A DNA stretch of 64,000 nucleotides from Gemmatimonadales bacterium UBA2988 (GCA_002346665.1 DEAG01000011.1:6589-70588), one strand, 5' to 3'; shown: positions 3,901 through 37,547, counted from the stretch's first letter. The notes: generated by a model not told the origin, from the sequence alone. Translations and numbers: made by a program.

Positions 3901-5339
3901 GGTCTCTCACTCTCCTTCAGAGCAGGTTCCCCACCCACTCCCATTCGCCGTGCGGCAAGAACTCCCGCGAACAGCCAGAACGCTGAGTTCTCGACACTAA
4001 AAAGGTTGAATGCGCTGAAAAACGACAGGCAGAGGGTGGCAGGAATGTACGCTGCGCAGGCTAGGCCAAGGCCGCGGACGAACCTGTCTTGCCTGGAATG
4101 ATAAATACCCCAGGCCATACCCATGAGCGCCACCAGAAGCCAGCCATAAGCCACAAGCCCAAGCACTCCTTGATCTGTCAAAAGCTCGATAAAGTAGTTG
4201 TGGACATCATACGACCCCAAGAGTATTGCGCCCATCGGGCCGAATTCTCCGCTGTGCTGCGTGAAGATTCCACCTCCACCTCCGAACGGCACGACCCAGG
4301 TGTATTCTTGGATGAAATTCCAAGCGGCACCCCAGATGGCGACCCGGCCTGAGGTGTACTCGCTGATAACCGACCAATCAGAAGAAGCCACAGTCCCTAA
4401 CGTGAATACGCGGTCCCAGACGGTGGCGGGTAGCCAGAAGGGTGTGAGGATTAACCCCACTACCCCCACCCAAATAAGCTTGCGGTACTCGGTCAACGCC
4501 AATACAACGAGAGCTACAGCAGCAGCCAGGTAAGCGGCCCGGGTGAAGGAGTACAGGAGCGTTGCTATCGACGCCACCGATCCGGCTAGGATAAGCCCAC
4601 GAAGCCACTTTCTGGACGTATAGGTGAACGCGAACACCGCAAACGGAATAGCCAGGGCTACGACGCGGCCGTGACCGGCCAGCATGCCAAGCCTTGTCGT
4701 AATGGTGCGCGCTCCCATGTCCAGGGACACGCCACCGACTAAAGCACTGCCGAACACTAAGCTGCCGATACCGACCGTCGCGAGCAGGCTGTACAGTCCC
4801 CACCTAACCTCGCGATCGCGCATGGGGAGGTTCGTACCTACGAAGAAAAAGATCAGTGGCAGGAGCGGAATGGCAAAGTAGCCGAGAATGAAGGACCCCA
4901 GATCTCCCATGGGAGGGGAGCCAGGCCGCAGTCGAGCACGCACAATCGCGATCATCGCCAACAATAGGACGGCTATCATGGGCCCAAAAATGCGTCGGTC
5001 CCCGACCAGTGGCCTGTGCTCCTTCAGGGATCGCACGGCCGTTCCCACGAGGGCTCCGAATAGCAGAAGGATAAGGGGATCAAGGCCCGGGATGCCCAGC
5101 ATCCTGCCTGGAAGGAGACCGTGAAAGGGAGCGATGGCAACCAAGACCGGGAACGCCAGCGCCGGCAGCAACGGCATGGCAAAAGCTACAAAAACCGCGA
5201 CCAGGCCACTCAGGGCCATCACCACCGACCGCTCTGCGACAAGAGGAGGGACGACCATTCCCGCAATCAGGGCAGCGAGAAAGACCGCGGGCATGGTTCC
5301 CGAGGTCAATACGGGACGGTTAAGCGCCAGACGATTCAT
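3897..5339 (-). CDS. O-antigen ligase / Wzy-like polymerase family membrane protein
   Basis: About 11 hydrophobic helices and the family loop motif YDVHNYFIELLTDQGVLGLVAYGWLL. Start uncertain: ATG 5339 overlaps the upstream gene by 20 nt, and the alternative is MPAVFL at 5294. Confidence 0.7.
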   Translation of the reverse strand: MNRLALNRPVLTSGTMPAVFLAALIAGMVVPPLVAERSVVMALSGLVAVFVAFAMPLLPALAFPVLVAIAPFHGLLPGRMLGIPGLDPLILLLFGALVGTAVRSLKEHRPLVGDRRIFGPMIAVLLLAMIAIVRARLRPGSPPMGDLGSFILGYFAIPLLPLIFFFVGTNLPMRDREVRWGLYSLLATVGIGSLVFGSALVGGVSLDMGARTITTRLGMLAGHGRVVALAIPFAVFAFTYTSRKWLRGLILAGSVASIATLLYSFTRAAYLAAAVALVVLALTEYRKLIWVGVVGLILTPFWLPATVWDRVFTLGTVASSDWSVISEYTSGRVAIWGAAWNFIQEYTWVVPFGGGGGIFTQHSGEFGPMGAILLGSYDVHNYFIELLTDQGVLGLVAYGWLLVALMGMAWGIYHSRQDRFVRGLGLACAAYIPATLCLSFFSAFNLFSVENSAFWLFAGVLAARRMGVGGEPALKESERP

Positions 5340-7149
5340 CTCTAAGACGCTCCGTCGGGATCCCCGCAGGCGGCGTGATCCGATACACCTTCACTTCGGC
5401 CGACCGCGTCGGCCCATTTGGGACGGGGAATGTGGTAATTAGCTCCCAGCGCTCCTCGATCGCACTGTAGAATTGGTGGGAGCTTGGGAAGGCCTCCCGG
5501 CCTGTCGGAGTGAAGAACCGCGAATACCAGTGGCTGGACGTCACAAAATATTGATAACCTTCTCGCTCGAAGAACTCCGGATAGAGGGGAGTCACCATTG
5601 TGTTCCTGGACGCCATGGCGGCTGCAGATGTCGATTCGGCCTCCGAGGACTTCCAGGTCGGCTGATGAACCATGAGGAGATCATAGGTCTGTGTTCGGGA
5701 CCGCTCGGCTACTTCTATCATCAGACGACGGTAGGTCGAACGAGCATCTGCGATATACTCTTTCCCCAACATAGTCTTCTCGTGTTCACTCCTGGCCGAC
5801 TCTTCCCAGCGCGCCCTGAGGCTAGCTACCGTCGGCTTCAACTGAGGTCCGTAGTTGTCTACCGCGATGCGGGTACCTGGTGGGATATGATCCTCAATCC
5901 ACCTCTTAGCTACGTTCCGATTGTCCGGAGCGATGAAGGCGAGATTCGTCCACACAACGCTGGCCGCTGCCGGAGCGAGCACGATCAGCGCCACAAATGC
6001 TACTGTCGCGGTCTCCCCGATCCGCACGGGGATTCGCCGGATCCAGGTGGCCAAACTGTCTATCCCCACACCGACCAACAGGGCCAAGACCGGAGTGACA
6101 GGGAGGATATACCAGAACTTGGCCGCCGAACGCGACATCACGACAAAGTAGACGATCACCGCACCAAGCGTTACCCACCGTGCCCAGGTCGGTCGGAAGG
6201 CACAAGAAAGCAGGCCGACAAGGGCTGCCCCTGCCAACGTGGGACCGAACACCGCAGGATCAACTAGGTACCCACCGAACCGGAGCGCCCCAATCCCAAT
6301 AGTGCCTTCTGCAGAGATCTGTGTGGAATTGAACACGGTGTACATCAGATCACGAATGACGGCGTCCAATTCGAACAATAGATAGGGAAACCCGATCAGC
6401 AGGCCAGCAGCGAAGGCTCCCAGGGCCGCAGCCCCCGCTCCGGTCGCCCTCAACTTCCACGGCGGCAGCCGTTCCCTGACCAACCAGGCCACCCAGGCCA
6501 GAATCACGGCCCCCGCCCACAGGATCGCAGGAAACTTGGTTGCGGTCCCCAGCCCAACCCAGAGGCCGGCAAGAGCAAGGTGCCGGATCCTCCCCGAATC
6601 CAGAAAGCTGACCACGCTGATGAATACCAGAACGACAAAGAAGACCGCGGGTACGTCCGGCCGGGTATAGTGGGAGTACTCGGCGTGCAAGGGCAGGAAC
6701 GCTAGAGCCAGGCCGGACAGAAATCCCACCCTCCGAGAAAATAGCCGCTCGCCTAGGCGGTACGTCAGGACAACCGTAGCAGCTCCGACCAGAGCCTCGA
6801 GCCCGCGACCGGTCAGGTACACGGCACTGGGATCCGTCAAGTAGCTGACGGCGAACTCCGAGGCCCCCTGATAGACCCCCAGAAAAACTCCCAGAAGGTA
6901 AAGAACTCCGAAACCACCAAATAGCACGAAAGAGAATAGCGGCTGGTACTGGAAGGTCAGAGGAATGGGGTTCCCTGTACCCAGGGCCAGAGCGTTGTTC
7001 ACAAGGACGTGCTCAGCCGGTCCGTAGAGTGCTGGTAACCCGAATCCAATCCCCCAGAGGCGAAGGGCCAGGGCCACTCCTCCGAGCCCTACCATGATCC
7101 AGCGTCCATCACGCCGTACGGACGCAGACCGACTAATACCCATGTTCAT
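5320..7149 (-). CDS. GT-C fold membrane glycosyltransferase (PMT_2 / ArnT-like, GT39/GT83 type) with C-terminal soluble domain
   Basis: N-terminal LRLWGIGFGLP, many TM helices over about 400 aa, then a roughly 200-aa hydrophilic C-terminal domain. Start trimmed to ATG 7149 (ATGA overlap with the upstream stop). Confidence 0.65.
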   Translation of the reverse strand: MNMGISRSASVRRDGRWIMVGLGGVALALRLWGIGFGLPALYGPAEHVLVNNALALGTGNPIPLTFQYQPLFSFVLFGGFGVLYLLGVFLGVYQGASEFAVSYLTDPSAVYLTGRGLEALVGAATVVLTYRLGERLFSRRVGFLSGLALAFLPLHAEYSHYTRPDVPAVFFVVLVFISVVSFLDSGRIRHLALAGLWVGLGTATKFPAILWAGAVILAWVAWLVRERLPPWKLRATGAGAAALGAFAAGLLIGFPYLLFELDAVIRDLMYTVFNSTQISAEGTIGIGALRFGGYLVDPAVFGPTLAGAALVGLLSCAFRPTWARWVTLGAVIVYFVVMSRSAAKFWYILPVTPVLALLVGVGIDSLATWIRRIPVRIGETATVAFVALIVLAPAAASVVWTNLAFIAPDNRNVAKRWIEDHIPPGTRIAVDNYGPQLKPTVASLRARWEESARSEHEKTMLGKEYIADARSTYRRLMIEVAERSRTQTYDLLMVHQPTWKSSEAESTSAAAMASRNTMVTPLYPEFFEREGYQYFVTSSHWYSRFFTPTGREAFPSSHQFYSAIEERWELITTFPVPNGPTRSAEVKVYRITPPAGIPTERLRDESSGA

Positions 7150-8852
7150 GTGTACACCCTTCCCCGCAGCAGGCGCCAACAGTCGCGGAAGAAAAGCGAG
7201 GGATGTGCCCGGTAGACGTCGCGCCGGTCCTGAAACCGATACCAGAGGCGACGGACGCGTCGCCCGAGCGTTGCCCTGCGCAACTCCATATTAATGTCTA
7301 TGTAGAAACGTGGGTGACACATGGCCAGCAGGTGCAGCAAGATGCGGTTCCCAATCCGCCCGGACCCGAATGCCGCATCGTAGGCCACGATCAGGACCCG
7401 GCTACTCCAGGGCGCCTTCAACACTCTCAACCACAGACGGAAATCCAACCTCTCGTTACCCGTCAAGCTCACCCTAGTGAACTCGATCCCCATGCGATCC
7501 AACCCCTCCCGAAGGCCCCACTCGATCAGCTCCGCTTCCCTGCCACTGTTATTTATGAAAGCGACCGCCTCCTCGACACGGGTGAGACCGTCACTTCCCA
7601 GCGCCTTGGGTAGCTCTTCACCGCATCTCTGTGCTAGGTACTGGCGCTGATACTCTATCGCAGATTCCTCACTTTCCCGAAACATCCTGCGGTATCTATC
7701 AAGCGCATCGCGGGTCCCCTCAACATCACCGCCCTGGATCAGGTTCACGGTCTCTTCAGGGTCATTCAAAAGATCGTAGAATTCTTCACGGTCCGAGTCC
7801 TCAAGGCCATGGTACAAGACATACTTGAAACGTCGCCCCCTGAGACCGGACACTCGATGATCCTGGGCCAGATAGCGGGCGTCGATCCGAACGACGTGCT
7901 CATCATTTGCATGATCCCCGCTAACGATCGACTCCTCCTGCAATCCGTCCCCAAGAAGATGGGCCACAGAGCGCCCCTGAACCCGCGGTGCACCGTCCTC
8001 CACCAGGCGGCGACGTTGACCGGACAGCCCGAGAAGGTCAAGCAGTGTAGGCGCCACGTCGAGCGTGCTAGCCATCTCGTCGACCTTTTTCGGCCGACAA
8101 CCCGGATACCACAACAAAAAGGGCACGATCACGTTGTCATCGGTCAGGATGAGATCATGTCTATTGTAGAACGGCCCTCGCCGCTTGATTAACTCGTTGA
8201 AAGACTTCCTACTGGGATCCGGGAAGCCGTGGTCGGAGCACATGACCACCACGCTCCGTTCGTACAATCCTCGCTCTTCGATCACGCTCAAAAGGCGCGC
8301 CACCCGATCTGAGACGGATGGATCCCTCCGGCCATTAATGTGAATGAAGGTGAAGACAGGGTCGGGAAGTGACGAACGAAGCACGGCCGTCGCTGCTGTC
8401 TCAACCGTGGCGCCATCCCAATGTTCCCAACTTCTCGCCCCCGAAGGAAGAAACCGAGCTGGGACCGGCTTGAGAATCTCGCGGAAATAGCGTCGAGCTT
8501 CACGGTAAAAGCTCACGCCGAAACGCTCGTACCCCTCTTCGGCCAGCAGAGACCCGAGATTTCGGAACTCTCCCTGGTCATACCGAAACGTCTCAAAGCT
8601 TCGACTCAATAGGTACGACGGTACCGAAGTAAACATGGAGCTCAGCGACATCACCGTGCTCGGCGCGACCGTAACCATGGTGGTGAATTCCACCGCCCGC
8701 TCCGCAAAGCGATCCATGACGTCTAGACGCCCTAGTCCCAACTCGTCATCTGGGCAATGATAGCTGCGCACCCCATCCACCAGTATCCAGATGAGGTTCC
8801 ATGCGCTCGCTCCTGCCTGCACTCCTTTCTCTTGTTGCTTGTCTTGTTTCAA
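7146..8852 (-). CDS. sulfatase-fold (alkaline phosphatase superfamily) enzyme with unrecognised C-terminal domain
   Basis: NLIWILVDGVRSYH (metal-binding Asp region) and VVMCSDHGFPD. The formylglycine position reads VAPSTVMSLSSMF instead of C/S-x-P-x-R. No signal peptide or TM helix. TTG start at 8852 (alternative GTG at 8822). Confidence 0.65.
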   Translation of the reverse strand: MKQDKQQEKGVQAGASAWNLIWILVDGVRSYHCPDDELGLGRLDVMDRFAERAVEFTTMVTVAPSTVMSLSSMFTSVPSYLLSRSFETFRYDQGEFRNLGSLLAEEGYERFGVSFYREARRYFREILKPVPARFLPSGARSWEHWDGATVETAATAVLRSSLPDPVFTFIHINGRRDPSVSDRVARLLSVIEERGLYERSVVVMCSDHGFPDPSRKSFNELIKRRGPFYNRHDLILTDDNVIVPFLLWYPGCRPKKVDEMASTLDVAPTLLDLLGLSGQRRRLVEDGAPRVQGRSVAHLLGDGLQEESIVSGDHANDEHVVRIDARYLAQDHRVSGLRGRRFKYVLYHGLEDSDREEFYDLLNDPEETVNLIQGGDVEGTRDALDRYRRMFRESEESAIEYQRQYLAQRCGEELPKALGSDGLTRVEEAVAFINNSGREAELIEWGLREGLDRMGIEFTRVSLTGNERLDFRLWLRVLKAPWSSRVLIVAYDAAFGSGRIGNRILLHLLAMCHPRFYIDINMELRRATLGRRVRRLWYRFQDRRDVYRAHPSLFFRDCWRLLRGRVYT

Positions 8853-11162: not shown

Positions 11163-12047
11163 CTAGGGTCGGCGTACGGCAACATCATCGGCAGCCCTCC
11201 GGTTGACCAGATCTGCGAGGAGCCCGATCGCCAGTACGTGAATGCCTCCCATAATCAACAACACGGAGAGTTCGGCCACGTTCTGGTTCTGCACAATATC
11301 GAACGCCAGTTTGGCAGCCCCGACCACGAACAGGACTATGCTGATCGGGAAAAACACCTTCAGCGGGTTCACATATATGACCATACGAACGATCTGGAAG
11401 AGAAGGCGCTTGGTGTCGAGAATCGGGTGAATCTTTGATTTTCCGAACCTCTTGTGATAATCGATCGGCACATACTCTACGCCTGCTCCCGACTGCATCA
11501 TGGCTAGAGTAATGGTCGTGCTGAAGGAGAACCCCGAGGGGAGCAATCTAAACAACCGCAGAGCGTCCTCTCTATGAAAAACCCGTAGTCCCGAGTTCAG
11601 ATCCGGGATCTTCGCATCCGCCAGGTAATTGGCCAACCGGAGCAGCAATAGCTTGGGAAGTCTACGGAGAAACGGGATGTTGACGTTAGCGCCTATCCTG
11701 GCTCCGACCACCATGGCGACGCCGTCAAGCTTGGCGAGAAGAGTCGGGATTACGTCACACGGATAGGTCCCATCCGCGTCGATCGTGACGATCACGTTTG
11801 AACGCGCGATACGAATCCCAGTCTTCAGAGCCTCGCCGTAGCCGCGACGGAAGGAATGCTGGTAGAGCGTGACCCCAGACTCCCTGGCTATCTCCGCCGT
11901 TCGGTCTGTCGAGGAATCGTCGACGACCACGATCTCGAAGCGGTGGGGAGTGTCGGCCATGGCAGCCTTAACATCTGCCAGAACCTGGCCGATACCAGCT
12001 TCCTCATTGTGGGCGGGAACGACGATGGTGACGTCCTTTTGCATCAC
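11163..12047 (-). CDS. GT2 polyprenyl-phosphate glycosyltransferase (GtrB/ArnC-like)
   Basis: VTIVVPAHNEEAGIGQVL, IVVVDDSSTDRTAEIA and TIDADGTYP, plus two C-terminal TM helices (FFPISIVLFVVGAAKLAF, VLLIMGGIHVLAIGLLADLV). Confidence 0.85.
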   Translation of the reverse strand: MMQKDVTIVVPAHNEEAGIGQVLADVKAAMADTPHRFEIVVVDDSSTDRTAEIARESGVTLYQHSFRRGYGEALKTGIRIARSNVIVTIDADGTYPCDVIPTLLAKLDGVAMVVGARIGANVNIPFLRRLPKLLLLRLANYLADAKIPDLNSGLRVFHREDALRLFRLLPSGFSFSTTITLAMMQSGAGVEYVPIDYHKRFGKSKIHPILDTKRLLFQIVRMVIYVNPLKVFFPISIVLFVVGAAKLAFDIVQNQNVAELSVLLIMGGIHVLAIGLLADLVNRRAADDVAVRRP

Positions 12048-13382: not shown

Positions 13383-14798
13383 CTACACTGCCAGCGCCGG
13401 CTTCACCGCTTCAGCTTGGAATAGCCTTCGATACATAGCTGACTGAAACAGAAGATCGGGGTCATAGCGTTGCTTGAGTGCCTCGAATTCTCTCCAACGA
13501 GGGAACATCTGCTGGAAATGGTCGACGGTCAACATTTCGTCTTTCGCCAAATATGATCGGCCGCCAGCTTCAAGCACCAGTTCGGTCATTCTGTAGAACA
13601 ATTCTGCCTCCTCGGCCTTCCCGCCGGCGTTCAGGGGAAGATCAATCCCGATCGAACAACCGTCGACCGAATAGCTCAGCATAGACTCGTCCGCCCGGTG
13701 GCTCTTAATCGCTGTCAGATGCGACGGCCGTCCGTTCTGCTGCGTCAGCTCGATGAGCTTTCGCATCGTCCGAGCGCATGAATCAAAAGGGATGACAGGC
13801 TCGAGCTCGAGATAGCCGCGCGGCGTAAAGAGGACTCGCCAATTCGGTATCATATCCAGAAGAAAGGTGAACTCGAAGTAATTCTGGACATAGGGACTGC
13901 GTCTCGTGCTGACTTTGTCGGTATGGAATTTCACAGTATTGACCGCGCTCATGAGCGTGTTCCCGAAGAACGGCTTGAGCATCGGCCACACCCAAGTACG
14001 GGGGAAAACCCCGAGAATGTAAGGGGAGATGTATCCTAGGATCTCACTTTTGGCACTCCGCGACGGCCTCTCAATGAAGCGACTCGTATGAATAGTACCC
14101 CGACCGAGATCAGCCCCCCGAGAGAAGCAATCCACCCACCCAATGTGGAAATCCGTCGTTGACCGAACTGCCTCGAAATCCTCCAGCATGCTCTCCAGGT
14201 TGGGCACGGTCCACTTGCTTACTTCCAGGTATGGGGACGGGATCCGCTTGCACTGCAGAACGATCTCGAGGAATATGCCTAGCAAACCCAGACCGCCAAT
14301 GGCGGCGAAAAATAGCTCCTGGTTCTCAGTCCGACTGCATTGGTATACCCGCCCATTACCAGCCAGCAGTTTGAACGCCACGACAGAGTCGCCGAGATTC
14401 CCCTCGTTCCACGCATTCTTGCCGTGGACGTTGTTTGCCACTGCACCGCCCAACGTTGGGTGTCGGATTCCGGGAACGGACGAGACCACCCAGTTGTCCT
14501 GCAGACAAACCTGTAGTGCCTGCTCGAATGTCACCCCCGGCTCTACTGTCATTTGACCGGTAGCCGGATCCCAGGCAAGGATCCGATTCATGTGGGTGAG
14601 GTCGATGACGACCCCGTCGGGGTTCAGGATGACGTCTCCGTAGCTGTATCCGGCCCCGCGCAAAGTCACGGAAAGGCTACGTCGACGCGCTTCCTCCAGA
14701 ACCAGGTCTATTTCCGCCCGACTCGATACCCTCGCCACATATGACAAGGCATGGGACGTCAATGTCCACCCTGAGGTCCGCTCGTAGCTAAGCACCAA
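13383..14798 (-). CDS. FAD-linked oxidase, DprE1-like (polyprenyl-phospho-sugar 2'-oxidase family)
   Basis: LRGAGYSYGD, GGAVANNVHGKN, LFFAAIGGLGLLGI and a C-terminal GGRSYLAKDEMLT...DPDLLFQSAMYRRL all parallel DprE1 blocks. Start trimmed to TTG 14798 or GTG 14795, just inside the upstream stop (14788). Confidence 0.7.
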   Translation of the reverse strand: MVLSYERTSGWTLTSHALSYVARVSSRAEIDLVLEEARRRSLSVTLRGAGYSYGDVILNPDGVVIDLTHMNRILAWDPATGQMTVEPGVTFEQALQVCLQDNWVVSSVPGIRHPTLGGAVANNVHGKNAWNEGNLGDSVVAFKLLAGNGRVYQCSRTENQELFFAAIGGLGLLGIFLEIVLQCKRIPSPYLEVSKWTVPNLESMLEDFEAVRSTTDFHIGWVDCFSRGADLGRGTIHTSRFIERPSRSAKSEILGYISPYILGVFPRTWVWPMLKPFFGNTLMSAVNTVKFHTDKVSTRRSPYVQNYFEFTFLLDMIPNWRVLFTPRGYLELEPVIPFDSCARTMRKLIELTQQNGRPSHLTAIKSHRADESMLSYSVDGCSIGIDLPLNAGGKAEEAELFYRMTELVLEAGGRSYLAKDEMLTVDHFQQMFPRWREFEALKQRYDPDLLFQSAMYRRLFQAEAVKPALAV

Positions 14799-15681
14799 CC
14801 ATCCTGAGGAAGTTTCGGCCCAAGATGCCCTCCCGTTCTCTATCGGTAATCTTGAGCCGCTCGATCCATCCCTTAATAACACCGTAGTCATAGACGCCGG
14901 TAGCACTCGAGAAGCCATAGGGACTATCGGTGCCGTAGAAACATTTCTCGGGACCTACTGCCGCAACAGCGATCCGCACAAAGCGCTCGCTAAGATGCGG
15001 ACTCGAGAGATCGATGTAGGCGTTCGCATGATCACGGACGAGAGGCCACATCTCCTTGAAAAAGGGCATGCCCGCGTGAGCAAAAATGATGCGCAGCCGT
15101 GGGTAGGTCTCTGCGAGCCACTGATACGCCCCCTGCGCCCCGAACCCCAAGTGAATCAGCAATGGCAATCCCAACTCCTCGGCACGCTGCGCAATCCCCG
15201 ACAACTCTCTCATAGGGTAATGATGCCAATAGGGATGCACCTTAACACCGATCATGCCCGGCACCGCCCTCCAGCGTTCCAAGTCCTCGATCACGTTGGG
15301 GTTGTCTCTCGGAGTCAGGAATATCCAGCCCCAGAACCGCTCCGGCATCTTCTCCAAGGCCGCGGCCACACTCTCGTTGTCCGGTTCAGTGGACTTGATG
15401 TACCCTTGTCGCCCTTGGGTGAACGGGCGCCACAAGGGACGGAGCGCGCCGTACTCATCGTAGAACGTTGTGCTCACGGCAGCGGCCGCCGGCCGAAGCA
15501 GCGAAGAGTTCATCATTGTGCGCTGCACAGCCAGAAGCACCGCAGATTTCTCCGGCTCCACCGTCTCTGTGATCCTGGGAATGAGCACGACCCTGTCGAT
15601 GCCTTCCTCGTCCATTTTACCGGACAGCATCTCCAGGCTGAGAACTCGCTCGTCAAGATGGGCGTGACAGTCAACTACCAT
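14788..15681 (-). CDS. amidohydrolase-superfamily metal-dependent hydrolase (TIM barrel)
   Basis: N-terminal VVDCHAHL, then FAHAGMP and YGTDSPY, a metal-ligand pattern typical of amidohydrolase_2-like proteins. Confidence 0.7.
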   Translation of the reverse strand: MVVDCHAHLDERVLSLEMLSGKMDEEGIDRVVLIPRITETVEPEKSAVLLAVQRTMMNSSLLRPAAAAVSTTFYDEYGALRPLWRPFTQGRQGYIKSTEPDNESVAAALEKMPERFWGWIFLTPRDNPNVIEDLERWRAVPGMIGVKVHPYWHHYPMRELSGIAQRAEELGLPLLIHLGFGAQGAYQWLAETYPRLRIIFAHAGMPFFKEMWPLVRDHANAYIDLSSPHLSERFVRIAVAAVGPEKCFYGTDSPYGFSSATGVYDYGVIKGWIERLKITDREREGILGRNFLRMVGA

Positions 15682-16474: not shown

Positions 16475-16544
16475 GATTTCCTTTCTCCGGATCAACCCTA
16501 CTGATCTAGCCCCATTATAGTTAGCCAAGTAGTTCTCAAGAACA

Positions 16545-25884: not shown

Positions 25885-25902
25885 CGGACTCCGTTTTCCG
25901 AG

Positions 25903-30114: not shown

Positions 30115-31164
30115 CTATGTGCGCTTGTCACTGTCACTGAGGTACTCGAACCACTCCCGGGTGGCCTCGGCTACCGAAGCTTCATCCCACACCGGAGCGT
30201 CCTGCCACTCCTCGATGCACTCCGACATTATTTGCACTCCTTCTTCAAAGCTCACTCTGGGCCTCCAGCCCAGTAGCCGAGAAATCTTGCTGGTGTCCGC
30301 AAATGTGCACTCAGGTTCACCCGGCCGCTTCGGAATGGATACTACATCGCCTCCTAGGAGGCTCACGAGGTGATTGACGGAATAGCTATTCCCGGATCCG
30401 ACATTCAGCACCTCGCCATCTAATTCGGACTCCGCCGCCTTGACCAAAGCGTCTACCACATCGGTCACGAAAGTGAAGTCTCGGGTTTGCGTCCCATCTC
30501 CGACTACCGTAAAAGGCTTTCCGGCCAGCTTCTGTGCTAGAAAGACACCAAAAACTGCCCCATAGGTCCCAGTCGTGCGAGACCGAGGACCATATACATT
30601 GAAGAGCCGAAGTGATACCGCCGGAACGCTGTACACCTCGCTCCAGTGAAGCACGTACCGCTCGCCGACATACTTCGTCAGCGCGTACGGGTACATAGGA
30701 GCTATCCGTTCCGTCTCCGGCGTCGGGAACTCCTCCGAGATTCCGTAGCACGACGAAGAAGCAACATAGATGAACCGTCTAACGTCCGCGGCACGCGCCG
30801 CTTCTAGGACGGATACTGTTCCTTCTACGTTGGCCCTGTGGTATGCCAGGGGTTTTTGAATTGAAGGCACGATATCGGCCAGCGCTGCCAGATGAAAAAC
30901 CCACTCAGCGTTTTCGAAAACTGTATTCGTATCTTGTAGATCTGCGACATCGACACGGCGAAAGGATAGTTTGGGGTGGTCTTTCACTGCCTCAAGATTA
31001 TCGATCTTCCCGGTCGACAGATCGTCGAAGACACGAACGATGTGTCCATCCGCGAGCAGTCTCTCCACCAAGTGACTGCCGATGAAACCCGCCCCCCCGG
31101 TTACGACAACTGTACGCGAGTCATCCAAATCTCGATTACCTCTGGTAAACGCACTTAGGTTCAC
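30115..31164 (-). CDS. extended-SDR NAD-dependent sugar epimerase/dehydratase
   Basis: [19 protein letters not shown] and YALTKYVGE (YxxxK). Confidence 0.8.
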   Translation of the reverse strand: MNLSAFTRGNRDLDDSRTVVVTGGAGFIGSHLVERLLADGHIVRVFDDLSTGKIDNLEAVKDHPKLSFRRVDVADLQDTNTVFENAEWVFHLAALADIVPSIQKPLAYHRANVEGTVSVLEAARAADVRRFIYVASSSCYGISEEFPTPETERIAPMYPYALTKYVGERYVLHWSEVYSVPAVSLRLFNVYGPRSRTTGTYGAVFGVFLAQKLAGKPFTVVGDGTQTRDFTFVTDVVDALVKAAESELDGEVLNVGSGNSYSVNHLVSLLGGDVVSIPKRPGEPECTFADTSKISRLLGWRPRVSFEEGVQIMSECIEEWQDAPVWDEASVAEATREWFEYLSDSDKRT

Positions 31165-31266
31165 GTATGAAACACCCTCTTAAAGGTAGGGTCAAAAAGC
31201 TCTGTGCCCCAATTCGACAGAGCAGTCTGGGAAGGATAAACCGACTTCTCAATAGATAATCGTCGG

Positions 31267-31509
31267 ATGGAAACACATCGGCGGGACTTGGATGGTCGTC
31301 GCATCTTCACAACACAGTTCAAGCAGAAGCAGATCACGTGGATAGTACGCCATAAGTTGACGGTTGCTGAGTTGGCACGGGAGTTAGCAATGTCCCTTTC
31401 GATCGTACGGCAGTGGCACCACCTGACCATGAACGGAGACTCAACATCCGTGGACGCTAAACAAAAAGAAAAAATCGTGCCGGTAAGCGACCTCCGATCT
31501 GGCCGATAA
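31267..31509 (+). mobile_element. orphan IS3-family transposase OrfA-like helix-turn-helix fragment
   Basis: RRIFTTQFKQKQITWIVRHKLTVAELARELAMSLSIVRQWHHL follows the IS3/IS911 OrfA pattern (R-x-F-[ST]-x-[EQ]-FK ... TVAE-x-AREL ... W). No OrfB/DDE gene follows. It lies on the opposite strand to the array, in a visibly A/T-richer gap. Confidence 0.5.
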
Positions 31510-31511
31510 AT

Positions 31512-32180
31512 TCAGAGCTTCTCACCGCGATGTTCCCACTTCCCTCGGAAGGTGACCCAGAACGAAGCCAGGATAAGCCTCAGGTCGAGCCCAAAGCTTC
31601 GATTTCTGACGTACACGAGATCGTAGCGGAACTTGTGCTTGCGGATTATATCGCGAGGCGCGTAGATCTGTGCTATCCCCGTCAATCCCGGGCGAACTCT
31701 GGAGCGTTCCTCATACCCCGGAACATCCTCAACAGGAACCGGCAACTGCTCACCCTCAATCTCGATTTCTTCCGGGAGAAGAGCCCGCGGCCCCACGAAG
31801 CTCATATCGCCAACAAGGATGTTCCAGAGTTGGGGTAACTCGTCCATCGCGGTGGCCCTGATTAACCTCCCGATCTTGGTTACCCGATCGTCTCCAGCAC
31901 TCGCCTGGAGCGGCCCAAAGCGTTTATCCGAATCCTCCACCATCGATCTAAATTTCCAACTCTTGAAGCGAGCGCCACCCCGCCCGACTCGCTCGTGCCC
32001 ATAGAATATGGTGCCACCGTCAGTCAGCTTGATGGCCGCTGCCATCACTGGCCACAACGGTAATGATGCTATCAAGCCCAGGGCAGCGAGAGAGGCGTCG
32101 AAAACCCGCTTCGACAACGGGTCCGGATACAGATATATGTCCGCCAGACGTGCTTGCTCATCGGCAAATTTCGTGTGCAT
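31512..32180 (-). CDS. polyprenyl-phosphate phosphoglycosyltransferase (small bacterial sugar transferase, PglC/WbaP-C-terminal type)
   Basis: KRVFDASLAALGLIASLPLWPV (re-entrant helix), KFRSM and DELPQLWNILVGDMSFVGPRA. Start trimmed to ATG 32180. Confidence 0.85.
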   Translation of the reverse strand: MHTKFADEQARLADIYLYPDPLSKRVFDASLAALGLIASLPLWPVMAAAIKLTDGGTIFYGHERVGRGGARFKSWKFRSMVEDSDKRFGPLQASAGDDRVTKIGRLIRATAMDELPQLWNILVGDMSFVGPRALLPEEIEIEGEQLPVPVEDVPGYEERSRVRPGLTGIAQIYAPRDIIRKHKFRYDLVYVRNRSFGLDLRLILASFWVTFRGKWEHRGEKL

Positions 32181-32184
32181 CCGC

Positions 32185-33378
32185 TCACCTGGATAGGAAC
32201 GCACCTTCAACCACACTATGGATACGCCTCGCGTGTAACAAAGCGCGGACCGTCCTACGATGCCAGTCAAAGCTGACGAGCTGGCGGAGCCTCGGAGCGA
32301 GGTCCTTCTGCAACACGCGAAACAATTCGTCTATGTCACGATCGCTCAAACTCTTCGCCAACTGCTGAAGCTGGAGTCCGCCCTGTATCTCATCGTCCAG
32401 CCGGCTGCGCCATGCATGCTGATAGCTGGACAAAGAGTCAGCGGACAGCTTGCCACTTCGAAGAGCATCACTCAACACTTCAGCAGCTAGCTCAGCGCCG
32501 ATTAGACCGTAGTAGATGCCTCCTGCCGTAGTCGTCTTCACCTGTCCAGCTGCCTCCCCGACGGCGATTACTCGATCTGCCACACTTGGATCGACAGGCC
32601 CCTGGACAATACCACGGCTCATGATCGTATACCCGTGTTCACCGGAACTGGCGAACCCATCGCCGTTGAGACGAGACCGTATGGCATCGGTCTTCAAGAG
32701 CTCCTTGATGAGCGTTTTCCCGCCCTGTGACCCCAGAAGCCCGATACCAGCCGTCCCGTGTCCCCGTGGAACTGCCCATGCGAAGAACCCTGGAGCGAAT
32801 CCTCGACCGAAGTACAGCTCCGCGCCTTCGGGCAGCTTGATAGGCAGTTCAGCACGGGTCCCTTGAACGAATCCAGGAGGACTGCCGAGGCTGAGTTGCT
32901 TGTGCAACCACTGCCGATAGCCAGTAGCCACAACGATCGCTTTTCCTCGTAAGAGCTGCTGACCCCCGTTGACATCGGCCGTGAGCTCTACTCCTCTGTC
33001 GGTGACCAGAGTTTTTCGGGCCTTGTGGCCTCGCAACAGGCAGGTACCGGCGGCAACAGCTCGTGAAACTAGCTGGTCGTCAAACTGAGTTCGGTCCACA
33101 ACGTGTGCCAGAGGCTGTTCGGGGCAGTACGGCACCTCCAATCCGGAGGGGGAAAAGAAAGAAACGCGCAGTATCGAGTCCACGATCGATTCCCGTGGAA
33201 GATCGAAGTGCGCGAATGCTTCAAGGCCTATGATCCCTGAGCAGATGATCCTGCTACGGGGCCCCTCGTTCTCATCCACAAGCGCCACGTCATGACCTGC
33301 CGCAGCCAGGTTTGCAGCAGCAAGACTCCCGGCGGGTCCCGCACCTACTACTAGCACCTCAAAGTTGGATGCCTTCAT
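32185..33378 (-). CDS. geranylgeranyl reductase-family FAD-dependent oxidoreductase
   Basis: VLVVGAGPAGSLAAANLAAAGHDVALVDE, RIICSG and VGEAAGQVKTTTAGGIYYGL. Confidence 0.75.
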   Translation of the reverse strand: MKASNFEVLVVGAGPAGSLAAANLAAAGHDVALVDENEGPRSRIICSGIIGLEAFAHFDLPRESIVDSILRVSFFSPSGLEVPYCPEQPLAHVVDRTQFDDQLVSRAVAAGTCLLRGHKARKTLVTDRGVELTADVNGGQQLLRGKAIVVATGYRQWLHKQLSLGSPPGFVQGTRAELPIKLPEGAELYFGRGFAPGFFAWAVPRGHGTAGIGLLGSQGGKTLIKELLKTDAIRSRLNGDGFASSGEHGYTIMSRGIVQGPVDPSVADRVIAVGEAAGQVKTTTAGGIYYGLIGAELAAEVLSDALRSGKLSADSLSSYQHAWRSRLDDEIQGGLQLQQLAKSLSDRDIDELFRVLQKDLAPRLRQLVSFDWHRRTVRALLHARRIHSVVEGAFLSR

Positions 33379-33572
33379 TAGGATGGTCGGATCTACTCTT
33401 AGAAGAAGGTGTGACGGTAGTGGCGCATCGAGGACAAGCTCGGCTTCGTTTTCTTGAAACCGTCAGCCTGAAGATGTGAGCAGTTCAGATACGGAGGGTT
33501 ATTACACTCCCCACGGTAGTGGCCGCGCCTTGCACACTAGCCGTGAGACCATCCCACTCCATAGCAGAGCGG

Positions 33573-35069
33573 TCACGCTCCCTTACGTGTGATCAAGTGC
33601 TTCGCCAGCACCGAGAAACCTCGCAGGTTCTTCTGGAAGTGCTGCACATCGGTAAGGGACTCCCGGACCTTATTGAAGACATAGCGGGGACGGAGGTAGA
33701 ACCGGCGGCGGCTGAGGTCACAGAAGTCCTCAATCTCCTTGTTGCTCAGGCCGGGCCGCTCCACGGTCGAGCGGTGCTGCCCCTCTCCATCGTTCCACTC
33801 GGAGAAATTCTCGGTGCGGAGCAGCCCCTCGGCCTTGTAGAAGTCATAGTCGTAGGTCCCGGGGGATACCATGATGGGGTAGAACTGGGCCGAGTCGATG
33901 TCCAGGGACAGGGCGAAATCAAGAGTCCGTTCCATGGTGTCACGCGTCTCGAACTTGTTGCCGTACATGAAGCAGCCGTGGATGTGGATACCCACATCCG
34001 CGGCATTGGACACGAAGTCCTGGATCCTGACCATCTTGGTACCCTTGCGCATCTTGTTGAGGATATCCTGGTCGCCGCTCTCGAAGCCCACGCAGAACAT
34101 CTTGAAGTTCGCCTGCTTCATCGCCTCCAGGGTCTCCAGCTTGACGTCCGCCCGGGCGTTACAGGTGTACTCTAGATTAGTCACCCCCCGCTCCACCATC
34201 AGCCGACAGATCTCGCGCACCCGGGCCTGATCGGCGGTGAAAGTGTCGTCCTCGATCATAACCCCCTTAACGTAGGGCAGGTGGGTTTCGATGTATTCGA
34301 ACTCATCCACCACGTTCTCCGGGGAGCGCGTGCGGTACTTGTGGCCGTACATCACCTGAGGAAGCTGGCAAAATGAGCACCGGTAGGGGCAGCCCCGGCC
34401 GGTGATGACCGTCACCATGGGTGTCTTGGTGTGGGCCATGAAATAATCGGGGATGTTGAGGAACTGATTGTAGATCTTGGTGACGAACGGGATAGCATCA
34501 AAGTCGTGGATAGGCTCTGATTTGCCTGTGCTGACGACCTCTCCGTTCCGGGCATAGGCCAACCCCTTAACATCCCGCCATTCCTCCCCCGCCATGATGC
34601 GGCGGGACATCTCCTGCACCGTGTGGTCGTACTCCCCGTCAAGGATTGCATCCAGTTGCAACCCGTTCTCCCGGATGTAGGCGAAGGTATCGTCGATGGT
34701 AGCCGTGACGTGGGGGCCTGCCACGCACACCACCGCCTCCGGCTGAGCCGCCTTGATCTCGGAGGCCAATTTCAAATCGCTGTAGATACTGGGGGTGGAG
34801 GTGTCTAGGACCACTAGGCGGGCGTCGTTCTTGCACGTGCGCTCTACCACTTCCTCGAAGGTAAGCTCCCCGGGGCTGCCGTCGATAACGTCGATGGTTA
34901 CCCCCTCCACCGTGGACGCTGCCGCCGCCGCGTAACACAGGAAATGGGGATAATAAAGGGTGTTGCTCTTGGTAACGCTGGGGCTCCGGGACTCCCGAGA
35001 AAAACGCCGCATGAACGGGGGATTGATGAATGTGGCGTTGATCGCGTCGGTGGCAGCTACTTGAATCAT
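33573..35069 (-). CDS. B12-binding-domain radical SAM enzyme (class B)
   Basis: N-terminal B12-binding-like region (LVVLDTSTPSIYSDLKLASEIKAAQPEAVVCVAGPHV) and the CX3CX2C cluster GRGCPYRCSFCQ, 498 aa. Confidence 0.8.
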   Translation of the reverse strand: MIQVAATDAINATFINPPFMRRFSRESRSPSVTKSNTLYYPHFLCYAAAAASTVEGVTIDVIDGSPGELTFEEVVERTCKNDARLVVLDTSTPSIYSDLKLASEIKAAQPEAVVCVAGPHVTATIDDTFAYIRENGLQLDAILDGEYDHTVQEMSRRIMAGEEWRDVKGLAYARNGEVVSTGKSEPIHDFDAIPFVTKIYNQFLNIPDYFMAHTKTPMVTVITGRGCPYRCSFCQLPQVMYGHKYRTRSPENVVDEFEYIETHLPYVKGVMIEDDTFTADQARVREICRLMVERGVTNLEYTCNARADVKLETLEAMKQANFKMFCVGFESGDQDILNKMRKGTKMVRIQDFVSNAADVGIHIHGCFMYGNKFETRDTMERTLDFALSLDIDSAQFYPIMVSPGTYDYDFYKAEGLLRTENFSEWNDGEGQHRSTVERPGLSNKEIEDFCDLSRRRFYLRPRYVFNKVRESLTDVQHFQKNLRGFSVLAKHLITRKGA

Positions 35070-35146
35070 TTTATCGGGCCCTTAGGGTAGCCTGTAATCC
35101 CCTGGTCCTAAAAGCATCACAAGGTAAAAAACCGACCCAGTTCACC

Positions 35147-35749
35147 TTACAGTTCCAGGACAAAGATAGACTTGTGTAGGCCCGGGTCAATCTTTCCCTG
35201 AATCTCCCGGGCGTGGCGAAATGTCGTGATTAATACAGCGTCGGGATCCAGCTCTCTTATCGATGCCGGAGGCTGAACAACCATCGTCCCCCTCGTTGCC
35301 CCCTGCTTGGCGGGGTCGTCATCCACGACTCCGACCATCTCAAGGCCCAACGATTTCGCCAAGGGATAAGTCGTCTCCATCACGTCTCCACTTCCGTAGA
35401 AAACGAGCCGGCTTACGCCTTTTCGCTTGATCTCCCGCAGACGTCGCCGGATCCGTTCCTGGACGTCCCGGAAGCTTCCGAGTACGGAGCGATAATGCTG
35501 ATGGCTCAGCCGTCGTCGATATTCTCTCCCGCTGGGCGTTAGACAGTACGCGTAGGGCCTCACATTCGGATTCAGAACCTGAACGTAGCCTTCCTTGATG
35601 AAACTTCTAATGCACCGATTTACGAGGCTCACAGCCATCCCTACATGTTCCGCGAGGCTCCGTTGGGACACGTTGAGGTTCTGATCCAGGTCCTCTAGGA
35701 TGAGGAGCTGGCGAAGGATACTGCGCGCACCACTGGCTTCCTCAGTCAC
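35147..35749 (-). CDS. winged-helix transcriptional regulator fused to a Rossmann/CoA-binding-like domain (Rex-like architecture)
   Basis: The N-terminal wHTH has SQRSLAEHVGMAVSLVNRCIRSFIKEGYV. The C-terminal part, RLVFYGSGDVMETTYPLAKSLGLEMVGVVDDDPAKQG, resembles the CoA_binding-type domain seen in Rex and at the N-terminus of polysaccharide enzymes. GTG start with GAGGG upstream. Confidence 0.6.
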   Translation of the reverse strand: MTEEASGARSILRQLLILEDLDQNLNVSQRSLAEHVGMAVSLVNRCIRSFIKEGYVQVLNPNVRPYAYCLTPSGREYRRRLSHQHYRSVLGSFRDVQERIRRRLREIKRKGVSRLVFYGSGDVMETTYPLAKSLGLEMVGVVDDDPAKQGATRGTMVVQPPASIRELDPDAVLITTFRHAREIQGKIDPGLHKSIFVLEL

Positions 35750-36666
35750 GGGCTACCCTCACGCCGCCGTAGGAATCTCTCGATCGCCCTGTTGTTCACA
35801 GTACAAAACATTCGTTTCAAACAGGAACATCGGTGCCGTCCAATCAAGCTCGTAAAGCAACTGCAGTAGATGACCACTCGGGTTGTGAGTATGGTGCCAG
35901 CAGCGAAACCACTGCCGGGGCGCCGGATCGGACCGCCTAGAGGATAAGCGCCCCTTTGTCCTTCACAGTCCAGCTACGCGGCGGGGAACTTCCTTAGGAA
36001 CCCAGGACCCGGGCCGTAGCGTACCGCGGAACCTGTCAACGATCGTGAAACAACTCGAGGGAGTAGCAATCTCCCGTGTGTTGATGGGGAAACGGGAATT
36101 TACTCAGACGGGCTCTGGGAGCGGTTTGGACGTCGGCGCTGGGGTAGTGGGAAGCCAACTCCTTCATACCTCATCGTCTTCCATCGCTTGTCCCCTCACC
36201 TAATTCCGGACACAGCTCCGCCCCGTCACTCCCAGTTGTGAGGCACACTCTGGTTCATGGATCACATGTGCAGCTATGTATTGGTGCAGGGAATAAGGAC
36301 TGCCCTGCCCGACCCCCGGAGTGGATACCGCAAGGAATGGGTAGCATTGGCTTGCGTTCCATTCCAGCCTTCCAGACTAAAGCCCACCCTGGCTGTACGC
36401 AAGGCTCCGTTTTTACGCTTCCACAGGCTTACGCCAGCCCCAGAATAGGACCCCATTCCCAGGTGTAGAATTACCCGTTGGGCCCCTCCTCCGAGGTGAT
36501 GTCGGTATGCTCGATAACGACGCCGGGATCTGTGGGCCCTTCGTCCAGGTCCGAGATGCCCCGTGAAAACCGACCAGATGCCGCTCATGGGTGAGAATCG
36601 GATAACCACGGGTCGATGGCTCGGCAGGATACGGCTTCGCCCTGTCAGTCACGAGGTTCGTCTGAC
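35750..36666 (-). promoter_or_regulatory. 917-bp ORF-free leader between the NusG paralog and the first gene of the glycan array
   Basis: Only short, Arg/Pro/Gly-rich, family-less ORFs on either strand. Contains a perfect 7-bp stem GGAATGG(18 nt)CCATTCC at 36334-36365. Confidence 0.4.
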
Positions 36667-37248
36667 TCAGGCCAGTGATCTCAATGTGGAGAGATCCAGA
36701 TGCACACTCACCGCCTGGCGGATGGCGGTGAGCCGGATGGCGACCCGGGCCTGCCCCCGCTTCTCCAAGAGCAAGCCTCGCATCCCCCGGAAAGGACCGC
36801 GGGTGACCAGCACGGAATCTCCGATGTCGAAGAAGTCGGCCGGAAGAGGCTCTACGGCTGTCTCCTCAATACCGGCCACCAGGAGTCGGACGGATTCCAG
36901 CTCCTCCTCACGGAGGGGAGACGGACACCCGTTCGGCCTAACCACATCCACGATGCCGTGGATCCGGACAACATCGTCGTACTGATTGAGGTCGAAGCGG
37001 ACGAAAGTATACCCGGGAAAGAGCGGGAAGGCCACGCGTTTCTTCCGGTCTGACCACTGCCGTTCCTTCTGCACTAGGGGCAGGTACGCCTCAAACCCCG
37101 CCTGGCTCAAGAGCTTACCGACCACCTTCTCGGCCCGGGCCCGGGTCCGGCAGGCGTACCATCGCGCCCCCCGGTAGAGCTCCGTAGAAAAGGTGCTGCC
37201 GGCCTTCGAGAACCCCTTGACCGGGCTCTTAAATGAATCTCTAGGCAT
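36667..37248 (-). CDS. specialised NusG paralog (UpxY/RfaH/LoaP-like transcription antiterminator)
   Basis: NGN-like RWYACRTRARAEKVV...VAFPLFPGYTFVRF and KOW-like IGDSVLVTRGPFRGMRGLLLEK. The ORF is open to 37395 but the nearest start before the NGN domain is ATG 37248. Confidence 0.7.
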   Translation of the reverse strand: MPRDSFKSPVKGFSKAGSTFSTELYRGARWYACRTRARAEKVVGKLLSQAGFEAYLPLVQKERQWSDRKKRVAFPLFPGYTFVRFDLNQYDDVVRIHGIVDVVRPNGCPSPLREEELESVRLLVAGIEETAVEPLPADFFDIGDSVLVTRGPFRGMRGLLLEKRGQARVAIRLTAIRQAVSVHLDLSTLRSLA

Positions 37249-37547
37249 ACGATCGGTCCGAGTCGCGTTTTCAAGGAAGCTATCCCGGGGCAGAGCGCCC
37301 GACTCTGCGGAACCATCCGAATCCAAGGACGAGAGCGGAGACTGATGTTCCTTTATCTCGCCGACAACAATGAGAACGCTTGTTTCCGAACGCAAGCCGT
37401 CGTTCTTCGTCGCTTCCGCGGGACACTACCGGACTGTCGCATGCTACGACTAGCGATGAAGGACTGGCACCACACTCTACCGCACGCCATCATCATCGCC
37501 GCGGGCATGGCATCACGCGTGGACACGCTGACAAGGGATCGCGTCAA
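37249..37547. promoter_or_regulatory. divergent intergenic region between the NusG paralog and the lhgO-like gene (promoters not mapped)
   Basis: Follows from the trimmed starts of the two divergent genes. No promoter hexamers confidently identified. Confidence 0.3.

Follow-up and report, generated by a model that had tools for sequence, protein, structure and literature searches.

In a 64,000-nt stretch of DNA (hereafter the window) from Gemmatimonadales bacterium UBA2988, a marine member of the Gemmatimonadota (GCA_002346665.1, DEAG01000011.1:6589-70588), four genes encoding a regulator, a radical S-adenosylmethionine (SAM) enzyme, a homolog of geranylgeranyl reductases (GGR) and a priming phosphoglycosyltransferase (PGT) head a co-oriented, Wzy-type glycan locus of about 32 kb (locus A, ~3.9–35.7 kb). 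We found that this locus-head region is a composite of three separable modules, namely the regulator, the radical SAM enzyme and the GGR-like gene together with the PGT gene, and not a trio. The conserved unit consists of the GGR-like and PGT genes, and the idea that a carrier lipid is tailored here is thereby supported for the GGR homolog only. The best explanation for the three modules, to which we give about an even chance of being right, is that the GGR-like enzyme saturates isoprene units in the polyprenyl phosphate that serves the PGT as a carrier. The four genes are the following:

35147..35749, minus strand: regulator of 200 aa, with a MarR-type winged helix, a long helix and a small Rossmann-like domain
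33573..35069, minus strand: HpnJ-sister, putatively cobalamin-type (class B) radical SAM enzyme of 498 aa
32185..33378, minus strand: GGR-superfamily flavin adenine dinucleotide (FAD) flavoprotein of 397 aa
31512..32180, minus strand: small monotopic PglC-type priming PGT, 222 aa from the ATG

Translation of the window placed all four open reading frames (ORFs) on the minus strand, exactly where a first-pass annotation, made from the sequence alone, had put them, and the motifs quoted in that annotation (GRGCPYRCSFCQ, IPFVTKIYNQFLNIPDYF, GHKYRTRSPENVVDEFEYI, FYLRPRYV, VLVVGAGPAGS and VGEAAGQVKTTTAGGIYYGL) were all present in the translations. The four genes had been taken for a head-of-operon module. 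In the window they are indeed the first genes after a long leader, but in relatives the GGR–PGT pair sits mid-locus or ahead of Wza/Wzc.

The flavoprotein at 32185..33378 belongs to the GGR superfamily according to hidden Markov model (HMM) score, sequence, motifs and fold, in line with its first assignment. It reached 176.7 bits against the superfamily model TIGR02032 (GG-red-SF, cutoff 158.8), covering model positions 2–296 of 297, and the closest solved structure by sequence was 3OZ2, a lipid reductase from Thermoplasma (E 2.8e-15, residues 5–359). From the work on 3OZ2 and SaGGR we take the hallmarks of these enzymes to be a GxGxxG motif, an active-site cysteine near the flavin and a YxWxFP-type motif. 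The GGR-like protein carries the FAD-binding motif GAGPAG, its Cys46 pairs with Cys47 of 3OZ2, and its FFAWAVP segment pairs with YIWVFP (Y to F and F to V, with W and P kept). The FAD motif, Cys46, F199/W201/P204, the GEAAGQVKTTTAGG segment and a C-terminal FDWH were invariant across 32 clade members. When an AlphaFold (AF2) model of the protein (predicted local distance difference test, pLDDT, 85.7; predicted template modelling score, pTM, 0.88) was submitted to Foldseek, 3OZ2 was matched with a template modelling (TM) score of 0.84 and SaGGR with 0.79–0.81, followed by halogenases (≤0.70) and FixC (0.67).

The family comprises 409 representatives at E ≤ 1e-30, and a neighbour-joining tree set the archaeal GGR set apart from the bacterial radiation. 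Some Gemmatimonadota are phototrophic, so the bacteriochlorophyll enzyme BchP had been a serious candidate. While the superfamily cutoff was passed, the bacteriochlorophyll and menaquinone equivalog models remained far out of reach: we rejected BchP/ChlP (TIGR02023, 115.4 against a cutoff of 343.3 bits; TIGR02028 for ChlP, 79.8 against 505.3) and MenJ (55 bits against 700), the neighbours being glycan genes and not pigment or quinone genes. An archaeal digeranylgeranylglycerophospholipid (DGGGPL) reductase was likewise discarded (92.7 against 580 bits), the archaeal set being separate in the tree.

The partner gene at 31512..32180 encodes a predicted small monotopic PGT of the PglC type, as first annotated. 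Its Bac_transf domain scored 192.6 bits over residues 24–211 of 222, and alignment with PglC (8g1n, E 2.5e-27) showed that the Asp-Glu (DE) dyad and GDMSFVGPR are kept, with MDELPQL paired with LDELPQL. The two genes meet as follows:

32181..32190, minus strand: GGR–PGT junction, in which AGGTGA (32190–32185) is Shine–Dalgarno-like and holds the GGR stop codon TGA, with a 4-nt spacer to the ATG at 32180

Judged from this junction, the GGR and PGT genes are probably translationally coupled. An alternative PGT ORF with a TTG start extends to 32270 and overlaps the GGR gene; this longer form is less likely because the PglC alignment begins at residue 23 of the 222-aa form and because AGGTGA sits just 5′ of the ATG.

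The linkage of the two genes was found well beyond the window. For 142 bacterial loci with GGR relatives, composed of 62 genome loci and 80 metagenome loci, we defined adjacency as a PGT within 600 nt. A Bac_transf PGT was directly adjacent in 58 of them, and most loci without a detected PGT were too short to judge. Together with archaeal loci of the lipid type, the counts were distributed as follows:

Bacterial genome loci (62): PGT within 600 nt in 23, farther out in the flank in 7
Metagenome loci (80): PGT within 600 nt in 35, farther out in the flank in 11
Archaeal lipid-type GGR loci (21): PGT within 600 nt in 0, farther out in the flank in 0

After collapse at 70% identity, a PGT was adjacent in 38 of 71 evaluable clusters. 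The density of PGT genes amounted to 0.184 per kb beside the GGR gene versus 0.019 per kb in the remainder of the same flanks, a ten-fold excess, and an unbiased Pfam scan of immediate GGR neighbours returned Bac_transf as the commonest family. Each of the three first close-homolog neighbourhoods showed a GGR-like gene followed by a small Bac_transf PGT gene, and within the window's own clade this order held in all members (7/7). Other lineages mostly have the PGT gene first, often with 18–26 nt separating the aligned parts, and in two loci the genes are convergent. The linkage occurs in Gemmatimonadota, Aminicenantes, Nitrospirota, Binatia, Eubacteriales, Spirochaetia, Omnitrophota and Planctomycetia metagenome-assembled genomes (MAGs) and is retained across many phyla at 31–55% GGR identity. 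The window PGT is 50–70% identical to the partner PGTs, even where the reductases share only 32–37%.

Among GGR loci lacking Bac_transf, the most frequent neighbours were family 4 glycosyltransferases (GT4) and Glycos_transf_4 proteins, the latter being polytopic PGTs of the WecA/MraY type. A Glycos_transf_4 gene was located directly upstream of the reductase gene in loci L015, L067, L098, L100 and L109, and in one tree subclade a Bac_transf PGT (L018, L104, L106) alternates with a WecA-type PGT in the identical upstream slot. The monotopic and WecA-type superfamilies are unrelated in fold; they have only their substrates in common, polyprenyl phosphate and a nucleotide sugar. Since an isoprenoid-reductase fold is thus combined with an exchange of non-homologous PGTs, the polyprenyl chain is the common denominator, and we regard this partner swap as the strongest argument for the carrier-lipid reading.

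In the mechanism we propose, the reduced FAD of the flavoprotein would hydrogenate at least one C=C bond of a polyprenyl chain, presented as polyprenyl phosphate, as its diphosphate precursor or as a polyprenyl-PP-sugar. The product would be a partly saturated, dolichol-like carrier, on which the adjacent PGT would load the first sugar phosphate. This carrier could then be used by the polyprenyl-phosphate family 2 glycosyltransferase (GT2), the DprE1-like oxidase, the GT-C transferase and the Wzy protein of the locus. The substrate of the reductase, the position and number of the reduced bonds and the physiological role are what we infer here. The first-pass annotation had considered that the carrier might be saturated or methylated: the saturation idea gains support for the GGR homolog via its linkage to the PGT, while methylation of the lipid found none. 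In Haloferax volcanii, deletion of a GGR gene is described as abolishing saturated dolichol phosphate (Naparstek 2012, as related in PMC10821996 and PMC5088576). Bacterial polyisoprenols, on the other hand, are fully unsaturated according to reviews (PMC5088576), and GGR-type reduction goes unmentioned in a review of polyisoprenoid biosynthesis from 2026. Our search of open-access papers and bioRxiv retrieved neither a link between GGR and a PGT or undecaprenyl phosphate in bacteria nor anything relevant on a bacterial polyprenol reductase. The remark in the first-pass annotation that carrier-lipid tailoring beside a bacterial glycan-initiating enzyme had not been described was thus borne out in this literature.

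The radical SAM enzyme belongs to a different module. Its Radical_SAM domain scored 79.1 bits, the CxxxCxxC core reading CPYRCSFC. The match to the B12-binding domain was just below the gathering score (29.3 against 32.1 bits), for which the original wording "B12-binding-like" was apt, and the top NCBIfam matches were all B12-dependent radical SAM families. By far the best of these was HpnJ (TIGR03471, 368.7 bits; protein residues 13–485, model positions 4–460 of 472), with BchE second at 129 bits. The proposed proximity to HpnJ therefore stands, but the score lies under the equivalog cutoff of 577.6 and marks the enzyme as a sister of HpnJ and not as HpnJ itself. No hopanoid genes (shc, hpnH, hpnI, hpnK) were found in the 64-kb window. 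The chemistry of HpnJ is known from genetics only; it is a putative ring-contracting, non-methylating cobalamin radical SAM enzyme that clusters with Fom3 and the sugar C-methylase MoeK5 (PMC13459092, PMC9204698).

We obtained 2657 homologs of the radical SAM enzyme at E ≤ 1e-20, from Fibrobacterota, Desulfobacterales, Terriglobales and some archaea, and examined the neighbourhoods of seven homologs with 44–64% identity. All seven lay in or beside glycan genes, and in six a GT2 gene adjoined the radical SAM gene or was found within ~3 kb. Four of the GT2 partners are mutually orthologous at 39–54% identity (L005, 4122–5102; L007, 3863–4906; L008, 8907–9815; L172, 8551–9657); the partners are EpsD/MftF-like proteins of the Glyco_tranf_2_3 type. 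The window contains no ortholog of them, the only similarities being at ≤38% identity over N-terminal GT2-domain segments of 57–125 aa. An analogy to the HpnI–HpnJ couple was considered and dropped: the partner GT2s are EpsD/MftF-like without a match to HpnI, and the window has no ortholog. We conclude that the radical SAM enzyme and the GT2 form a conserved, uncharacterised two-gene module that is independent of the GGR–PGT pair. The most probable role of the radical SAM enzyme is to remodel a sugar on a glycan that is lipid-linked or still being built, by C-methylation or by an HpnJ-like rearrangement, and it may act on the first lipid-linked sugar. The same literature search gave nothing relevant on cobalamin radical SAM enzymes in O-antigen C-methylation.

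Proteins with a PilZ domain recurred near both modules. Small PilZ proteins are encoded directly downstream of GGR-like genes in L016, L020, L023, L025 and L028, and overall in 8 of 113 GGR neighbours, from Omnitrophota and Planctomycetia loci. One Desulfobacterales chromosome (L172) harbours a compact PilZ–radical SAM–GT2–PGT cassette, with the PilZ gene at 6530–6901. This recurrence hints at control by c-di-GMP.

The first-pass annotation had pictured the radical SAM enzyme and the GGR homolog as working together, with or without the PGT as a third member, to tailor the carrier or the lipid-linked sugar added first, under the control of a regulator that senses a cofactor. The three genes lie side by side in one orientation in the window, and several contigs belonging to the same species-level cluster share this arrangement. 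In addition, HpnJ as the nearest family works on a lipid-linked aminosugar, and the L172 homolog resides in a cassette with GT2 and PGT. However, a GGR homolog was present in 0 of the 7 radical SAM neighbourhoods, the HpnJ-like radical SAM enzyme and the regulator were each present in 0 of the 142 bacterial GGR loci, and the conserved partner of the radical SAM enzyme elsewhere is a GT2 that the window lacks. As a conserved unit, the pair or trio is largely refuted, lack of conservation being an outcome that the first-pass annotation had itself named as refuting, and joint action of its members appears quite improbable. A related thought is that the flavoprotein is no isoprenoid reductase at all and instead serves as an electron-transfer protein like FixC or the electron-transfer flavoprotein (ETF)–quinone oxidoreductases (ETF-QO), feeding for instance the radical SAM enzyme, or acts on sugars as a flavin oxidoreductase. 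FixC (7koe) is indeed a significant match in both sequence (E 3.1e-8) and fold (TM 0.67), halogenases and monooxygenases share the fold, radical SAM enzymes require a reductant, and in L173 a flavin reductase is encoded beside the radical SAM–GT2 pair. Yet GGRs are clearly the best fold match (TM 0.84 versus at most 0.70), the score exceeds the cutoff of the GGR superfamily, and both the cysteine and the W/P motif are invariant. Moreover, the flavoprotein never co-occurs with the radical SAM enzyme elsewhere, and no genes for ETF or ferredoxin partners are found in the window; this account, too, appears quite improbable.

If the GGR-like protein is an isoprenoid reductase, it might still reduce a different isoprenoid, such as a terminal glycan anchor, a quinone or short prenyl diphosphates, with adjacency to the PGT reflecting co-regulation. 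The known enzymes are promiscuous, accepting geranylgeranyl diphosphate (GGPP), farnesyl diphosphate (FPP), prenols and quinone tails (PMC10821996); MenJ is a weak match (55 bits), and one-third of the GGR relatives have no PGT neighbour. We nevertheless consider this unlikely, in view of an adjacency that is tight, often overlapping and specific to the initiating transferase, of a swap between non-homologous PGTs that share only polyprenyl phosphate and a nucleoside diphosphate (NDP)-sugar, and of the lack of quinone or carotenoid genes among the common GGR neighbours. That the adjacency has no functional meaning, the GGR-like gene merely hitch-hiking in mobile glycan loci, is hard to believe: glycan loci are mosaic and often exchanged, and the GC content of locus A is below that of its flanks (54–58% versus 61–65%), but PGT genes are ten-fold enriched beside the GGR gene compared with the rest of the same glycan-rich flanks, and the linkage spans many phyla at 31–55% GGR identity, varied gene orders and two PGT superfamilies. 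Several observations weigh against saturation of the carrier as well. The characterised equivalogs (BchP/ChlP, DGGGPL reductase, MenJ) all score far under cutoff, so that their substrate specificity is not transferable; the GGR-like motif is a variant, F-x-W-x-V-P where GGRs have Y-x-W-x-F-P; and FixC, halogenases and monooxygenases are near structural neighbours with other chemistries. About one-third of the evaluable bacterial relatives lack a nearby PGT, meaning that the family is not exclusively PGT-linked, and no GGR–PGT fusion was found in the best 150 of 1.84 billion representatives (all 238–494 aa). Apparent long ORFs in Aminicenantes proved to be overlapping genes in different frames and were dismissed as fusions. 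All 80 genome-collection loci come from MAGs or a single-cell genome, which may be why the GGR–PGT pairing went unnoticed; the 160 loci of both collection scans taken together derive from MAGs, single-cell genomes or metagenome contigs. The support for the pairing is genomic, and adjacency indicates a functional link but does not name the substrate.

The regulator is predicted to have a Rex-like architecture at the fold level only and is not a member of the Rex family. Its best Pfam matches were HTH_24 (33 bits) and, weakly, a C-terminal Methyltransf_14 domain (24 bits), while the Rex models of Pfam and NCBIfam (N-terminal DNA-binding and CoA_binding-type Rossmann domains) gave no match even at E ≤ 10. 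Rex membership was therefore rejected at the HMM level, the N-domain matching HTH_24 and MarR. In the AF2 model (pLDDT 90.3), a long helix connects a winged helix to a mini-Rossmann domain of five strands, and the top 22 Foldseek matches in the PDB were Rex repressors (E from 5.6e-7, probability 1.0). The TM score of these matches is only ~0.37 because the domain orientation differs. The first-pass label "Rex-like" thus holds for the fold and fails for the family.

A profile built from 44 regulator homologs matched MarR proteins (3nrv) with its N-terminal part and, with its C-terminal part, the nucleotide-binding region of Rex 5zz5 (residues 113–189, E 2.4e-5) as well as a UDP-sugar dehydrogenase fragment. 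The family includes 153 homologs of ~200 aa, with PF22674 (C2185-like_N), the named ones being from Gemmatimonadetes; one homolog heads an unrelated NeuB/Wzy glycan locus. Invariant residues are F-Y-G-x-G-x-x-M-E and D143-D144-D145. The canonical NAD(H)-binding motif of Rex consists of GxGxxG and an acidic residue after β2; in the regulator the third glycine is replaced. Its DNA binding is probably coupled to a ligand, either a dinucleotide or a nucleotide sugar.

Upstream of the regulator gene, two further features were recognised:

36667..37395, minus strand: UpxY-family NusG/RfaH-like antiterminator (NF033644 antiterm_UpxY, 116.9 bits, cutoff 100; Pfam NusG, 65.7 bits)
35750..36666, minus strand: non-coding leader of ~917 nt between the antiterminator and regulator genes, with no family-supported ORF

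The antiterminator is assigned to the UpxY family by its score and by its position 5′ of a glycan operon with a long leader. In UpxY systems, the leader region serves as the target of the antiterminator, and by analogy the leader at 35750–36666 is probably the target region of the UpxY-like protein. An Rfam scan of the whole window yielded zero families at gathering score, hence no known riboswitch or leader RNA, and a scan for promoters and terminators in 30900–37500 gave a site count not above that of shuffled sequences. A terminator 3′ of the PGT gene was considered and rejected, as the T-rich tract at 31445–31525 folds no better than shuffles (z = +1.0); a separate transcription unit for the four genes can therefore not be claimed. 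The 5′ end of the UpxY-like ORF is overlapped by 16 nt (37380–37395) by an ORF on the plus strand (37380–38753), which encodes an L-2-hydroxyglutarate-oxidase-like flavoprotein (NF008726, 348 bits, cutoff 299).

The remainder of locus A encodes sugar-nucleotide enzymes, including short-chain dehydrogenase/reductase (SDR) epimerases and dehydratases, three DegT aminotransferases, an HldE-like enzyme and a SIS protein, together with a thiamine pyrophosphate (TPP)-dependent E1 alpha/beta pair, several methyltransferases, GT2 and GT4 glycosyltransferases and a Wzy_C protein. Four of its genes would make up a second carrier-dependent branch:

11163..12047, minus strand: polyprenyl-phosphate GT2-like protein (AglJ TIGR04182, 132.7 bits; Dol-P-hexose transferase, 109.7 bits; PpgS, 90.4 bits; all sub-cutoff)
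13383..14918, minus strand: DprE1-like FAD oxidase (NF053785, 258 bits over the full length, cutoff 500; FAD_binding_4 and ALO)
15725–16600: SDR, possible DprE2 counterpart
5320..7179, minus strand: GT-C (PMT_2/ArnT-like) transferase (PMT_2, 55 bits; PMT, 36 bits)

DprE1 acts on a polyprenyl-phospho-sugar, and GT-C enzymes of the PMT_2/ArnT type use polyprenyl-phosphate-sugar donors. By analogy, the GT2, the DprE1-like oxidase, the SDR and the GT-C transferase look like a branch for epimerisation of a polyprenyl-phospho-sugar and its periplasmic transfer. The pyruvate-dehydrogenase-like E1 alpha/beta pair (24826–26880; beta subunit 315.5 bits against a cutoff of 321) is encoded between an epimerase and two DegT genes, an arrangement suggesting that a sugar receives a two-carbon unit and thereby becomes branched or acylated. 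The HldE-like bifunctional heptose enzyme (28553–30082) has its domains reversed, with the adenylyltransferase at the N-terminus and the PfkB kinase at the C-terminus, and is adjoined by the GmhA-like SIS protein (27895–28494).

Genes for SecA and BamD lie between locus A and a second glycan locus (locus B; Wza, Wzc, Wzi, flippase, Wzy). Two proteins with RCC1 repeats (beta-propellers; 51517–52686 and 56205–57587) are encoded amid the GT4, GT2, flippase and Wzc/Wza genes of the second locus. The window also encodes the following protein:

47999–49612: UDP-glucose/GDP-mannose dehydrogenase-family protein

The GC content of locus A (window positions 1–36000) is 54–58%, versus 59–65% for the SecA/BamD region and locus B (36000–64000), a difference consistent with locus A having been acquired horizontally.

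Polyprenyl phosphate is the limiting carrier common to peptidoglycan, O-antigen, capsule and protein glycosylation. Textbooks assign fully unsaturated undecaprenyl phosphate to bacteria, and saturated dolichols to archaea and eukaryotes. Our data suggest that the carrier lipids for glycans are hydrogenated in some bacteria as well, a trait that has until now been attributed to archaea and eukaryotes. With somewhat less than even confidence, we extend this to a sizeable, mostly uncultured slice of the bacteria, which may make partly saturated, dolichol-like carriers for particular surface glycans via a GGR-family reductase coupled to a PGT. The taxa that could tentatively be included, again short of an even chance, are Gemmatimonadota, Aminicenantes, Nitrospirota, Binatia, Omnitrophota, Planctomycetia, Aerophobetes and some Clostridia. 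If this is true, the rule that bacterial carriers are fully unsaturated would be overturned. A reductase tied to the priming transferase would amount to a chemical marking of a carrier pool for one pathway, and would offer a way to partition a private pool from peptidoglycan synthesis. This would bear on the competition for carriers between pathways, on the evolution of dolichol-type carriers and on how selective PGTs, flippases and Wzy/GT-C enzymes are for their substrates. Should the enzyme reduce the alpha-isoprene unit, it could also point to the still-unidentified archaeal alpha-reductase. Independently of the lipid, the pair of HpnJ-sister radical SAM enzyme and GT2 indicates that a sugar-remodelling step, so far uncharacterised, is widespread in glycan loci.

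Compared with known systems, the GGR-like protein resembles the archaeal GGRs of Thermoplasma acidophilum (Ta0516/3OZ2) and Sulfolobus acidocaldarius (3ATQ) in its FAD-dependent fold (TM 0.79–0.84) and shares with them the FAD motif, the active-site cysteine and the aromatic-W-P motif. It differs in having only ~18% identity to them in structural alignments and in scoring far below the DGGGPL-reductase equivalog cutoffs; furthermore, the archaeal loci are devoid of a PGT (0/21), whereas the bacterial clade is PGT-linked. BchP/ChlP and MenJ are members of the same superfamily, but the window protein scores far lower than their models require. The precedent for a GGR acting on a glycan carrier lipid is thus archaeal, namely the enzyme of Haloferax volcanii. 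Like PglC of Campylobacter, the window PGT consists of one Bac_transf domain (~200 aa) that carries both the catalytic DE dyad and GDMSFVGPR; in contrast to PglC, it has an insertion of ~10 residues after the PRALL motif, and its probable coupling to a reductase gene has not been described for PglC. The radical SAM enzyme parallels HpnJ in its full-length match, its putative B12-like N-domain and its CxxxCxxC core, and the GT2 neighbour of its family is reminiscent of HpnI beside HpnJ; it departs from HpnJ in its score below the equivalog cutoff, in the lack of hopanoid genes and in a GT2 partner that, elsewhere, is not HpnI. The regulator combines, as Rex does, a winged helix with a Rossmann-like nucleotide-binding domain in ~200 aa. 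Unlike Rex, it has a MarR-like N-domain and a G-x-G-x-x-M glycine motif, and its C-domain equally resembles NDP-sugar-binding domains (3nkl, TcaB9/KijD1). Finally, the putative branch of GT2, DprE1-like oxidase, SDR and GT-C transferase in locus A can be likened to the mycobacterial decaprenyl-phospho-arabinose route.

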